Positions 3,001 to 6,000 of a stretch of 12,776 bases of DNA are shown piece by piece. The position numbers are program-made. How positions within the stretch are numbered: position 1 is the stretch's first letter; every line of letters starts with the position of its first letter. Source of the DNA: a virus (lineage: Duplodnaviria; Heunggongvirae; Uroviricota; Caudoviricetes); IMG/VR virus record IMGVR_UViG_2671180755_000025. One strand, 5' to 3'.

Positions 3001-6000
3001 AAGAGGCAATTATTCATTACCTGGGGACGCATAAGAGCTTCTGTGCACAGGACGTTGCCGCGGTAACAGGTGCAACCGTAACCAGCATAAATCAGGCTGC
3101 GGCTAAAATGGCGCGGGCAGGAATCCTGGTCGTTGATGGTAAGGTCTGGCGAACGGTGTATTACCGGTTCGCTACCAGAGAAGAACGGGAAGGAAAGGTG
3201 AGCACGAATCTGATTTTTAAGGAGTGTCGCCAGAGTGCCGCGATGAAACGGGTATTGAGGGTATATAAAAGAACATCAATGGGTACACAATGATGAAACA
3301 GGTGAGTTGAGTTCAAACTGTAGTACAATTCTCTCCAGTTTGAACAGGAAAGAATATGTTATGAACCCTTATATTTATCTTGGTGGTGCAATACTTGCAG
3401 AGGTCATTGGTACAACCTTAATGAAGTTTTCAGAAGGTTTTACACGGTTATGGCCATCTGTTGGTACAATTATTTGTTATTGTGCATCATTCTGGTTATT
3501 AGCTCAGACGCTGGCTTATATTCCTACAGGGATTGCTTATGCTATCTGGTCAGGAGTCGGTATTGTCCTGATTAGCTTACTATCATGGGGGTTTTTCGGC
3601 CAACGGCTGGACCTGCCAGCCGTTATAGGCATGATGTTGATTTGTGCCGGTGTGTTGGTTATTAATTTATTGTCACGAAGCACACCACATTAAAAATAAT
3701 TTCTTTTAAAAGACTGCAATATGGCGGTTCATATCTTTACATGGGCCGCTTTTGTTAATGTTTTTAGTTTTTGTGTATTCTTTTGTGCCTTCAAGATTAT
3801 TGCGTAAGCAAATTGCAATACGATTATTGTTGTATATTCAAGATAGTGTGATCGTAATTGTCTTTTTAAATAAAAATTAAACAAAAATTATATCTCACCA
3901 CTAAGGTTTATAAAAGCATAAGTTAGCAGGTGTCACCATGAAAAAAGCCATAGCATATATGCGATTTTCATCACCAGGTCAGATGTCTGGCGACTCATTA
4001 AACCGACAGAGAAGACTTATTGCTGAATGGTTAAAGGTAAATAGTGATTATTATCTTGATACCATAACATATGAAGATTTAGGATTAAGTGCATTCAAAG
4101 GAAAGCATGCACAATCAGGAGCTTTTTCGGAATTTTTAGATGCTATAGAGCATGGTTATATATTGCCAGGAACTACATTGTTAGTTGAAAGTCTGGACAG
4201 ACTTTCAAGAGAAAAAGTCGGTGAAGCGATTGAACGTCTGAAATTGATTTTGAATCACGGTATTGATGTTATAACTCTTTGCGACAATACAGTCTATAAT
4301 ATTGACTCTTTGAATGAGCCATATTCATTAATAAAAGCCATACTTATAGCACAAAGGGCAAATGAAGAAAGCGAGATAAAGTCAAGTCGGGTTAAATTAT
4401 CATGGAAGAAAAAACGGCAGGATGCACTGGAATCAGGTACGATTATGACGGCGTCTTGTCCGAGATGGCTCTCCTTAGATGACAAAAGAACGGCTTTTGT
4501 TCCAGACCCCGACAGGGTGAAAACTATTGAGCTAATTTTTAAACTCAGGATGGAAAGGCGCTCATTGAATGCAATAGCCAAGTATTTAAATGATCATGCT
4601 GTAAAGAATTTCTCAGGAAAAGAAAGTGCATGGGGGCCTTCTGTAATTGAAAAATTATTAGCGAATAAAGCTCTGATAGGTATATGCGTACCTTCATATC
4701 GTGCAAGAGGGAAAGGGATAAGTGAAATCGCTGGCTATTATCCCAGAGTCATATCAGATGATTTGTTTTACGCTGTACAGGAAATTCGGTTGGCACCTTT
4801 TGGTATTAGCAATAGTAGCAAGAATCCTATGCTAATAAATCTACTTCGAACAGTTATGAAGTGTGAGGCTTGTGGTAATACCATGATTGTTCATGCGGTA
4901 TCTGGAAGTTTGCATGGCTATTATGTTTGTCCGATGAGAAGATTACATCGATGTGACAGGCCATCAATAAAGAGAGATTTGGTTGATTATAATATCATTA
5001 ATGAATTGCTTTTTAATTGTAGCAAAATTCAACCAGTTGAAAACAAGAAAGATGCTAATGAAACTTTAGAGTTAAAAATTATTGAGCTTCAGATGAAAAT
5101 TAATAATTTAATCGTTGCATTGTCTGTCGCGCCTGAAGTTACCGCTATAGCAGAGAAAATAAGACTATTAGATAAGGAATTACGAAGAGCTTTGGTATCA
5201 TTGAAAACTTTGAAGAGTAAAGGTGTAAATTCATTCAGTGATTTTTATGCTATTGACTTAACCAGTAAAAATGGACGAGAGTTATGCCGTACACTTGCCT
5301 ATAAAATATTCGAAAAAATCATAATTAATACGGATAATAAAACCTGTGATATCTATTTTATGAATGGCATTGTTTTTAAACACTATCCTTTAATGAAAGT
5401 AATATCCGCCCAGCAGGCGATAAGTGCTCTCAAATATATGGTTGATGGTGAGGTTTATTTTTGAGTAATAATCACTTTTTCAACCGTGCTATGGTATGAA
5501 AGTAAAGTAACTACTATGATATTAACTATCGAGCAAGAATATCCCCAGGCACTCAACAGGGCGCAGGTCAACGTGAATCGGTCATGACACGACACCGATT
5601 TTGCGGAATCAATGTTGCTTATGAATACAACATCCCGCTTAGTACATGTTCAACACATCAGCAAATTTTGAACTGGGTGTGGCACTTAACTGAAAAAACA
5701 TGGATGACACAAAATGTTACTCGTCGCTTCATTGAAGTAGCTTGTGGATATCACAAGCTAGACTATCGCCAATGATATTCAATTTTTGATTTTTTAGTAT
5801 CAACCTTCCATAATAATGCCACCGGAGCTTGAACAACTCCGGTGACTTCTGCGCATTTAAGGGGACTTAAATGCGACCACAATCTGAACTCCTTACCTTG
5901 TCACAGATGCAGAAATGCACCTGCGATGTCTTGCATCCAGCGTTTGATCTCTGCGGAGGTGAAGCGTGAACCTCCCACAAGATGGCATCAAATTACATCG

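Follow-up and report, generated by a model that had tools for sequence, protein, structure and literature searches.

Separate emrE and ybcK modules in a mosaic cargo slot of the lambda-like prophage Sp8

The genes emrE, ylcJ and ybcK are already known and annotated in prophage DLP12 of Escherichia coli K-12 (b0543, b4733, b0544), where they lie between ren and ybcN. Large serine recombinases, the family to which YbcK belongs, include the phage integrases A118 Int, SPbeta SprA, TP901-1 Int, phiC31 Int and Bxb1 Int, as well as the enzymes of transposons and cassettes: TnpX of Tn4451, TndX of Tn5397 and CcrAB of SCCmec serve elements with defined ends, which form excised circles and insert at new sites. 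Members of YbcK's own protein family, of similar size, are encoded by islands inserted in hofB. Temperate phages also carry morons, a concept of Juhala and Hendrix reviewed in PMC3594210, and the criteria of deviant GC and terminator applied here are as stated there.

We analysed a stretch of 12,776 nucleotides (the window), which is 100% identical to prophage Sp8 of E. coli O157:H7 Sakai, located at icd; this match ruled out DLP12 (argU site) as the identity of the prophage. Sp8 encodes its own tyrosine integrase and excisionase. It has the same genes as DLP12 in the same order and in the same slot: window 3080-5503 is 97.3% identical to K-12, with 8 nucleotide differences in ybcK and 2 residue differences in EmrE. 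The two prophages differ in location (argU versus icd), in their integrase sites and in what follows ybcK, which is ybcL-ybcM and about 270 bp of unique sequence with a 17-bp inverted repeat in K-12 but a deleted remnant in Sp8. The relevant features of the window are the following.

2991..3293, + strand: ren, conserved phage core to about 3257; its last 12 codons (3258-3293) are variable cargo.
3242..3303, + strand: left slot junction, with an imperfect 12-nt direct repeat GATGAAAC(G/A)GGT at 3242-3253 and 3292-3303.
3284..3701, + strand: emrE module, 77 bp of upstream sequence and emrE; it alone matches the fliE-adjacent chromosomal emrE-ybcL-ybcM locus, at 91.4%.
3311-3345, + strand: 10-bp inverted repeat upstream of emrE.
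3361-3693, + strand: emrE, SMR transporter of 110 aa (Pfam PF00893, E=2e-35).
3702..5530, + strand: ylcJ-ybcK module, starting at the point of divergence between K-12 DLP12 and the fliE locus and ending (5503-5530) where Sp8, 4A7 and P15-385 lose collinearity.
3723-3750, + strand: terminator-like hairpin with a T tract, from the hairpin scan.
3758-3880, + strand: ylcJ-like ORF (Pfam YlcJ, E=1.7e-18), annotated by PGAP.
3938-5464, + strand: ybcK, large serine recombinase of 508 aa (PF00239, PF07508 and PF13408).
5531..5783, + strand: decayed remnant of a cargo block (gene for a P22AR C-terminal domain and hypothetical genes), from alignment to locus L012 (phrog_2559, phrog_12459).
5584-5775, + strand: chimeric 63-aa ORF left by two deletions.
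5784..5870, + strand: leader of the ybcN-rusA operon, the right slot boundary; all slot variants are collinear again from 5784-5786.
5786-5803, + strand: leader palindrome TTGATTTTTTAGTATCAA.
5809-5814, + strand: -10-like CATAAT in the ybcN leader, a promoter-like match.
5818-5846, + strand: hairpin with a 12-bp stem in the ybcN leader, from the hairpin scan.
5871-5969, + strand: ylcH-like ORF of 32 aa (PGAP annotation of EDL933).
5966-6421, + strand: ybcN (PGAP annotation of EDL933), phage nin-region core outside the cargo.

A preliminary description of this DNA had proposed an AT-rich island at 3255-5965, and the composition agrees: GC is 0.369 (36.9%) there and 0.474 in the remaining window, and the flanking phage genes are at about 50% (0.499 in O-P-ren, 0.500 from ybcN to Q). 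For the slot as delimited below, GC is 0.363 against 0.50 on both sides. GC3 is 0.29 in ybcK and 0.35 in emrE, compared with 0.50-0.65 in the neighbouring genes.

Comparison with related prophages with and without the segment set its junctions at about 3258 and about 5784. On the left, similarity to other ren genes ends at 3257-3266, 9-12 codons ahead of the stop, as had been described for the last ~12 codons; the limit is 3266 against the ren genes of SfI and Stx1a phages and 3257 against an emrE-less prophage (L014). The second copy of the 12-nt repeat (3292-3303) looks like a vestigial ren end opening the emrE module, and the emrE module of the fliE locus begins at this very copy; the two-copy arrangement may also be due to chance. 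On the right, the variable segment ends at about 5783 and not at 5965 as first proposed, because 5784-5870 is the ybcN leader, followed by the ylcH-like ORF. Beneath the match to this leader, the phage 82 entry X92588 has annotations of a -10 signal and of a site bound by a regulator. The conserved block of the ylcH-like ORF and ybcN (5871-6421) recurs in phage 82 and in numerous prophages; similarity of YbcN to NinB is weak, just below the Pfam cutoff (22.5 versus 23.8 bits, E=1e-4).

The inventory of the segment had to be revised as well. Both emrE and the 508-aa recombinase gene are present as described, but they are not alone. The interval 3694-3937, taken for non-coding, holds the terminator-like hairpin and the ylcJ-like ORF, which is 40 aa long here compared with 49 aa in K-12 and is frameshifted in P15-385. 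The second stretch described as non-coding, 5465-5870, contains the cargo-block remnant at 5531-5783 and, from 5784, the conserved leader. The absence of ybcL and ybcM was described correctly, the K-12 order emrE-ylcJ-ybcK-ybcL-ybcM-ylcH-ybcN not being present in the window.

Compared with strain GPEC79-13-647, the remnant has lost 228 bp and 661 bp in two deletions. Window 5528-5609 corresponds to L012 4258-4339 and window 5608-6500 to L012 5001-5893, so L012 4030-4257 and 4340-5000 are deleted here. Outside O157:H7 (307 genomes) the remnant sequence is essentially absent, and no phage matched it.

At least six alternative contents were found between the same two boundaries, where sequences split at 3257-3266 and become collinear again at 5784-5786. 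K-12 carries emrE-ylcJ-ybcK-ybcL-ybcM, followed by ylcH-ybcN; the contents of phages 4A7, Perceval, 1W and 3W include an esterase gene. Other variants consist of P22AR-C and a 260-aa gene, of a YajG-like lipoprotein gene with neither emrE nor ybcK, of inverse autotransporter and esterase genes, of a gene for a HEPN protein, or of inserts of about 770 bp. Esterase cargo is seen both with and without ybcK. Since unrelated recombinase-free cargo (YajG-like lipoprotein, esterase with inverse autotransporter, HEPN, the ~770-bp inserts) shares both outer junctions, these junctions are to be read, from the alignments, as slot boundaries and not as element ends.

The segment thus resembles a moron in being replaced by other contents at the same position in relatives and in a composition unlike that of the surrounding genes. 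It is added at a fixed position, its cargo is useful to the host and emrE is followed by a terminator-like element, the T-tract hairpin at 3723-3750. Promoter-like matches do not exceed chance (10 in the scan versus 11.3 expected), a point against the slot model as far as separate transcription of the modules is concerned. The difference from morons lies in several modules being stacked here, one of them a recombinase, which is unusual moron cargo. The Rfam scan of the window matched no family.

EmrE has the features of an SMR transporter: it is 110 aa long and E14 within MNPYIYLGGAILAEVIG is the membrane-embedded Glu14. Folding of the inverted repeat upstream of emrE is no better than that of shuffled sequences (z = -0.73). 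In 2627 of the 5426 complete genomes, emrE is joined straight to ybcL-ybcM, without ybcK, at about 89% identity; the single locus of this kind that was examined is flanked by fliE and yedF. Across alleles dN/dS of emrE is 0.02, and the two emrE alleles have diverged to a dS of about 0.4. With emrE-ybcL-ybcM lacking ybcK in so many genomes and with this dS, the two genes have, as judged from their distribution and divergence, separate histories.

ybcK was found in 1426 of the 5426 genomes, or roughly one in four complete E. coli genomes, and the median copy number is one; 12 deposited phage genomes, plaque-forming phages included, carry the module. Among the matches listed, the ybcK segment starts at the base right after the emrE module, and the pair is linked in 1356-1426 genomes. 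To the right of ybcK the neighbour varies, with breakpoints at +39, +66 and +283. Comparison of K-12 with the fliE locus reveals a clean 2083-bp ylcJ-ybcK indel, its left joint located 8 bp past the emrE stop and 236-247 bp before ybcK.

YbcK has the catalytic domain of serine recombinases (PF00239, E=5e-19, residues 4-161), followed by PF07508 (191-284) and the zinc ribbon PF13408 (302-357). All 17 homologues compared, the most distant at 29% identity, keep R9, S11, Q15, D87, R88, R91, R140, E143 and E144, and likewise the zinc cysteines C309, C312, C331 and C339. The profile search finds the integrases of A118, SPbeta (SprA) and TP901-1, with A118 Int and SprA matched over the C-terminal domains too. 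YbcK thus shares with phage serine integrases the domain order and an intact catalytic Ser/Arg/Asp set. The kinship is distant, since a PDB search with the single YbcK sequence found no relative, and YbcK differs from these enzymes in not being encoded at the prophage end, in belonging to a prophage with a tyrosine integrase and in having no identified att sites. ybcK is full length in five of five alleles compared, with dN/dS of 0.05-0.16 (about 0.07 against the 4A7 allele, with 39 synonymous and 11 non-synonymous changes), and its main 90% cluster has 6144 member sequences with a 508-aa representative. These data point to YbcK being a complete, selectively maintained large serine recombinase and not junk.

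We consider it probable that 3258-5783 is a lambda-like moron slot in which three modules assort independently through phage-phage recombination, with no self-mobilisation. Located between ren and the ylcH/ybcN nin operon, the slot would hold emrE with its upstream region, ylcJ-ybcK and what two deletions have left of a P22AR-C/hypothetical-gene block. Ordinary phage-phage recombination presumably spreads and reshuffles these modules, with homologous exchange through the body of ren at the left flank and through ybcN's palindrome/promoter leader at the right flank, both conserved, and occasional illegitimate joints between modules. As a proton-coupled SMR exporter, EmrE would make the lysogen tolerant of cationic compounds, and the hairpin at 3723-3750 probably ends transcription. 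ybcK is oriented along the rightward early operon. Any activity of YbcK would most likely be directed at a DNA site outside the segment.

The last point bears on a rather doubtful alternative, that YbcK is a working accessory recombinase of the phage with its target elsewhere, as a second integrase using an alternative chromosomal site, as a multimer resolvase or acting on other mobile DNA, and that this activity keeps the module in the phage. Strong purifying selection, the invariant catalytic residues and carriage by isolated temperate phages are all consistent with this. So are the 50-60%-identical homologues, which recur at two places in prophages, either between replication genes and Q or as the last gene after the tail-fibre genes beside host DNA; in Atlantibacter (L006) 540 bp separate the homologue from the ssrA 3' end, and this is the usual position of an integrase. 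No tRNA gene was found beside the 25 homologue loci, Atlantibacter alone having ssrA nearby. Large serine recombinases use two att sites of about 40-50 bp with an imperfect dyad, one of them near the gene. Near ybcK, however, no such site was recognised: the 280 bp before the gene and the 360 bp after it contain no attP-like dyad, the best scoring 12-13/20, within the shuffle range. Such a site may lie further away. Moreover, Sp8 already has a tyrosine integrase and an excisionase, PADLOC defence models gave no match for YbcK or five neighbouring cargo proteins, and in the literature we found no report of YbcK activity, the papers mentioning ybcK being expression or tolerance screens.

Quite unlikely, in our opinion, is the possibility that ylcJ-ybcK alone is a minimal serine-recombinase cassette, inserted site-specifically downstream of emrE in an ancestral emrE-ybcL-ybcM lambdoid phage and fixed since, with the right end lost in the Sp8, 4A7 and P15-385 types. 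Three observations speak for it and against the slot model. First, clean presence or absence of the 2083-bp ylcJ-ybcK unit is also expected from insertion of a recombinase cassette. Second, in other genera a recombinase gene of this family is shared between unrelated contexts together with about 80-220 bp upstream and 10-110 bp downstream, at 82-96% nucleotide identity; a Pantoea prophage and the edge of a Pantoea island share a block from -221 to +56 at 94% identity, and the conserved E. coli block (-236 to +9..+66) is of the same size. Third, in Mixta, Serratia, Leclercia and Rahnella, recombinases of a branch with 39% identity over the full length of YbcK clearly insert islands into hofB. 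These islands are 7.4-10.2 kb long and have fixed ends, hofB being split at the His box and the recombinase gene lying 78 bp from the left end; their cargo consists of defence genes (AbiTii, Shedu). In two loci (L011 and L040), in addition, the recombinase segment lies between direct partial duplications of a phage gene, a fragment of which is just upstream of the recombinase. An apparent flanking duplication in L041 is off the pattern: the region is rearranged and contains two separate fragments, which lend no support to an insertion.

Against the cassette stands the dyad test, in which the hofB islands, serving as the positive control from the same recombinase family, scored 16/22 (p ~0.0015), whereas the joined ends of the K-12 ylcJ-ybcK unit scored 11/22 (p ~0.92). 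No dyad was found at the fliE-locus empty site or at the ends of the Pantoea 1.8-kb unit either. E. coli ybcK thus differs from the hofB recombinases in lacking fixed ends, dyad-symmetric joined ends and other island features, and the boundaries of the shared blocks vary between pairs (-78 to -483), as mosaic joints would. In the 1426 E. coli genomes ybcK comes right after emrE among the matches listed, at a median of one copy. A synthetic query for an empty emrE|ybcL junction with prophage-type (K-12) alleles found none in the 5426 genomes; all empty junctions carry the diverged allele (about 89%), except for one candidate match at 94.6%. Terminal repeats amount to short pairs, probably arising by chance. 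We speculate, with considerable doubt, that ylcJ-ybcK is, or goes back to, a minimal cassette (the gene of a large serine recombinase with ~100-250 bp of flank) that colonises phage accessory slots across Enterobacterales, from replication genes to Q and beyond the tail-fibre genes; it would be kin to the hofB defence-island integrases, would have landed between emrE and ybcL in E. coli and may promote turnover of adjacent cargo.

The whole emrE-to-ybcK segment being one nested integrative element, inserted and excised by YbcK, is very improbable and largely refuted. A recombinase gene and a cargo gene do adjoin in an AT-rich block, as in serine-recombinase transposons and cassettes where a resistance-type gene lies beside a large serine recombinase, and the pair is linked in many genomes, including those of 12 phages. 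However, the defined ends, circles and new sites of Tn4451, Tn5397 and SCCmec are not seen for the Sp8 segment: its boundaries inside ren and in the ybcN leader are common to recombinase-free cargo, emrE occurs without ybcK in 2627 genomes, and there is no common element end, because the sequence beside the right boundary differs in every variant. No pair of shared ends was found in independent contexts, no second chromosomal context being seen among the matches listed, and close relatives offered no empty target or excised form. A synthetic empty-site query found no strictly empty ren|ybcN slot in the 5426 complete genomes, and no excised form was found in them, although assemblies cannot show rare circles. 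No inverted cargo adjoining ybcK was found in these genomes, where matches are collinear on one strand as judged from summary tables, and the inverted repeats are short and probably due to chance, unlike those of an invertible switch of the Hin/Gin/Pin type. The repeat search at the segment ends returned only short direct or inverted pairs compatible with chance. A crossed repeat pair at 4039-4069/5466-5505 was rejected as element ends, one arm lying within ybcK and the pair being poorly kept in K-12.

The preliminary description had seen here a nested acquisition rather than phage core and had asked whether it is, or was, an independently mobile unit. Accessory cargo it is, but the data do not support one mobile unit of emrE and the recombinase gene, given the shared slot junctions, the separate histories, the varying right neighbour, and the failure to find a dyad or any empty, excised or inverted form. 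What we found comes close to the passive mosaic filler named there as the opposite outcome, that is, mosaic cargo with no recombination-site signature. Nevertheless, the ybcK segment is more than filler, because ybcK is under purifying selection.

Equally improbable is a reading of the segment as junk that decays within a defective prophage, with ybcK the dead remnant of an old integrase: the third cargo block is decayed by its two deletions, ylcJ is shortened here and frameshifted in P15-385, and some genomes have ren, ybcK or ybcL disrupted by IS elements, but this reading holds only for 5531-5783 and is contradicted for emrE, with its dN/dS of 0.02 at dS ~0.4, and for ybcK, which is full length at low dN/dS, has a large main cluster with a 508-aa representative and resides in plaque-forming phages.

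Overall, emrE and ybcK are separate modules in a mosaic and otherwise ordinary slot, and the ren-ybcN interval can be regarded as a multi-module cargo hotspot, which also takes up esterase, inverse autotransporter, HEPN-domain and lipoprotein genes. The emrE gene of O157:H7 and K-12 is phage cargo, borne by isolated temperate phages as well, and therefore this clinically discussed efflux gene can spread by lysogeny; in about half of the complete E. coli genomes a diverged emrE is joined to ybcL-ybcM instead. An active YbcK might serve as a new enzyme for genome engineering or might drive phage mosaicism.

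Window 3000-6300 matches E. coli O157:H7 genomes at 100% identity, and in Sakai this region lies within the annotated lambda-like prophage Sp8, which begins directly after icd. By its gene order the prophage is a relative of K-12's DLP12; DLP12 itself, at argU, is a different prophage. The genes, their order and the prophage location are already known, being annotated in RefSeq and familiar from DLP12.

Gene order in the window
1-1143, minus strand: integrase, then excisionase
O and P, then 2991-3293: ren
3361-3693: emrE
3758-3880: ylcJ-like ORF, 40 aa
3938-5464: ybcK
5871-5969: ylcH-like ORF
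5966-6421: ybcN
Distal to ybcN, in order: ninE, ybcO, rusA, ylcG, Q, lysis genes, bor, nohD

The supplied sequence has a 17-N run at 11418-11434, upstream of nohD. A second AT-rich patch, 10200-10760, has a GC of 0.33 and spans a 177-aa ORF on the minus strand, in the position of ybcV of K-12 DLP12, annotated there as DUF1398-containing; this patch is probably another moron.

The AT-rich character attributed to 3255-5965 in the preliminary description is borne out by a GC content of 0.369, against 0.474 in the rest of the window and 0.50 in the genes on both sides. Third-position GC is 0.29 in ybcK and 0.35 in emrE, while O, P, ren, ybcN, rusA and Q have 0.50-0.65. Loss of similarity in the last ~12 codons of ren was likewise confirmed: other ren genes are alike up to 3257-3266 and diverge beyond, so the last 9-12 codons belong to the variable part. 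All three domains expected of a large serine recombinase are present in the 508-aa product of ybcK, and ybcL and ybcM are indeed missing. The stretches described as non-coding are AT-rich but not empty, as 3694-3937 holds a terminator-like hairpin and the ylcJ-like ORF, and 5531-5783 is what survives of a further cargo block. Compared with strain GPEC79-13-647, the window has two deletions here, of 228 bp and 661 bp, which took out the greater part of a P22AR C-terminal-domain gene and a hypothetical gene and left a chimeric 63-aa ORF. The next stretch, 5784-5870, is the conserved ybcN-operon leader (palindrome, -10-like hexamer, hairpin) and lies outside the cargo. Upstream of ylcH/ybcN, every slot variant has the elements seen here at 5786-5846, namely the palindrome TTGATT-N6-AATCAA, whose spacer differs from variant to variant, the -10-like CATAAT and a hairpin with a 12-bp stem.

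Searches across 5426 complete E. coli genomes and the deposited phage genomes show that the stretch from ren to the ybcN leader is a slot that can hold many different contents.

Contents of the ren-ybcN slot
emrE-ylcJ-ybcK-ybcL-ybcM: K-12
emrE-ylcJ-ybcK-esterase: phages 4A7, Perceval, Lambda_4C10, 1W and 3W
emrE-ylcJ-ybcK-P22AR-C-260-aa gene
emrE-ylcJ-ybcK and a deleted third block: this window
YajG-like lipoprotein and hypothetical gene, without emrE and ybcK
Inverse autotransporter and esterase
HEPN-domain gene
Inserts of ~770 bp

Comparing related prophages for exact junctions, as had been proposed, placed the edges at 3257-3266, where every variant compared diverges, and at 5784-5786, from where all are collinear again. 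Because these breakpoints are common to all variants, the edges belong to the phage backbone and do not mark where an emrE-ybcK element begins or ends. The slot esterase is found both with and without ybcK.

The emrE module (3284-3701) comprises emrE, the 77 bp before it and the 8 bp after it. A 91%-identical copy is elsewhere joined directly to ybcL-ybcM without ybcK; in the one locus inspected this block lies between fliE and yedF and is followed by a small Q-gene remnant. A synthetic emrE-ybcL junction built from K-12 alleles was spanned by matches in 2627 of the 5426 genomes, one of them at 94.6% identity and all the others near 89%, so the K-12 "DLP12 emrE" is a minority arrangement. The two emrE alleles are separated by a dS of ~0.4 (dN/dS 0.02), which indicates an old split. 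ybcK is present in 1426 genomes (median one copy), and among the matches listed its block starts at the first base past the emrE module. Past ybcK, similarity stops at +39 (K-12 versus the others), +66 (Sp8 versus 4A7 and P15-385) or +283 (4A7 versus P15-385). Judging by these comparisons, the slot pattern is one of stacked modules exchanged independently. We therefore consider it likely that the segment is a lambdoid-prophage cargo slot whose three modules arrived and are exchanged in the ordinary way, by phage recombination in the flanks that the variants share. By the definition in PMC3594210, emrE is a classic moron, with deviant GC, its own terminator-like element and a benefit to the host.

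Three further observations concern these loci. A perfect inverted repeat of 10 bp (GTTCAAACTG / CAGTTTGAAC, 3311-3345) stands upstream of emrE; the diverged copy at the fliE locus retains it apart from one change, and as RNA the repeat folds no better than shuffled sequences. At the fliE locus of strain elppa6 (L004, 6001-8252), the diverged emrE-ybcL-ybcM is followed by a quuD-end-like fragment and an IS200/IS605 transposase, and the block looks like an old prophage remnant. In the K-12 locus (L002, 6626-6683; +197 to +254 past the ybcK stop), the ~270 bp exclusive to the K-12 type contain an inverted repeat missing from the window (17-bp arms, 15/17 complementary, 20-nt spacer, 54 bp overall, no T tract behind), a putative site that could serve protein binding or recombination.

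ybcK is alive, as far as its sequence tells. All five alleles compared are of full length, and the gene differs from the most diverged one (phage 4A7) by 39 synonymous and 11 non-synonymous changes (dN/dS 0.07). The catalytic serine, its partner residues and four zinc cysteines do not vary across an alignment whose members go as low as 29% identity. Used as a query, the family profile finds the integrase structures of A118, SPbeta SprA and TP901-1; a single-sequence search with YbcK gave no match to them. Twelve deposited phage genomes carry the module. No recombinase activity or target is reported in the papers found that mention ybcK, and PADLOC has no model for it. That YbcK actively works on an external target is possible, though not probable, and is compatible with the mosaic slot.

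An ancient site-specific insertion of ylcJ-ybcK alone appears doubtful. The best argument for it is a clean 2083-bp presence/absence difference between K-12 and the fliE locus, comprising ylcJ-ybcK and ~310 bp. However, when the two inner ends of the K-12 unit were joined to mimic attP, only 11/22 positions were dyad-symmetric (p ~0.92), against 16/22 (p ~0.0015) for the positive control from the same recombinase family, the hofB islands. The empty site and the two junctions were likewise unremarkable in dyad symmetry, the surroundings of ybcK in the window gave no attP-like dyad, and a repeat search of the window returned short pairs only. Among the 5426 complete genomes we found no strictly empty ren-ybcN slot, no empty form with matching alleles (ren-ybcN and emrE-ybcL) and, judging from summary tables, no inverted form. 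The preliminary description had held that freely varying junctions with no recombination-site signature and no evidence of excision or inversion would indicate passive mosaic filler; neither an att-like dyad nor an inverted form was found, but the purifying selection on ybcK speaks against mere filler.

A recombinase cassette colonising phage accessory slots seems unlikely to about the same degree. Homologues of 50-60% identity (Atlantibacter, Yersinia, Erwinia, Ewingella, Pantoea, Kluyvera, Citrobacter) are almost always in prophages, either between the replication genes and Q, like ybcK here, or as the last gene past the tail-fibre and tail-fibre-assembly genes, adjoining host DNA (540 bp from the ssrA 3' end in Atlantibacter, next to lepA in Erwinia). 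Pairs from different contexts or genera have in common only the gene with ~80-220 bp before it and 10-110 bp after it, where nucleotide identity is 82-96%; these dimensions match those of the block conserved in E. coli (-236 to +9..+66). In two comparison loci (L011, L040) the recombinase segment stands between direct partial duplicates of a phage gene; a third case, L041, did not hold up. In a 39%-identical branch (Mixta, Serratia, Leclercia, Rahnella; L030-L033), 78 bp separate the recombinase from the left end of an island of 7.4-10.2 kb (locus coordinates ~9923 to 17320-20200). In all four genera the type IV pilus ATPase gene hofB is interrupted by the island precisely at the His box, between TGHLVL and STLHTN, and the joined island ends are dyad-symmetric. 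The Rahnella cargo includes defence genes (two AbiTii genes, Shedu SduA) and a small resolvase. The family therefore includes true island integrases, whereas E. coli ybcK shows none of the element features by which the hofB islands are recognised.

YbcK-clade genes often stand beside a small-ORF pair (~80 aa and 107-130 aa), one of which weakly matches S24 peptidase, or beside DinI/UmuC-like genes (L006, L087, L092, L093, L011, L088). In Citrobacter koseri (L090, 5145-8530), the homologue adjoins a 555-aa gene with a faint Shufflon_N match in a plasmid-like or conjugative setting (TraD, MobA/MobL). An Atlantibacter-type lambdoid prophage (L011) has a SIR2-domain gene at 3755-5695, possibly for anti-phage defence, between the replication genes and the homologue; the gene is absent from the related prophage L017.

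The suggestion that emrE and the recombinase form one independently mobile unit is not supported and is highly improbable: the slot edges are common to variants lacking emrE and ybcK, the modules occur separately, emrE being joined to ybcL-ybcM without ybcK, no att-like dyad was found, and the 5426 genomes gave no empty form with matching alleles and no inverted form. Pure decay is equally hard to credit for an intact gene under such constraint, carried by deposited phages.

Such mosaic behaviour is well known from lambdoid phages. Under the mosaic-slot explanation, YbcK is a selectively maintained recombinase, and its substrate most likely lies outside this segment.
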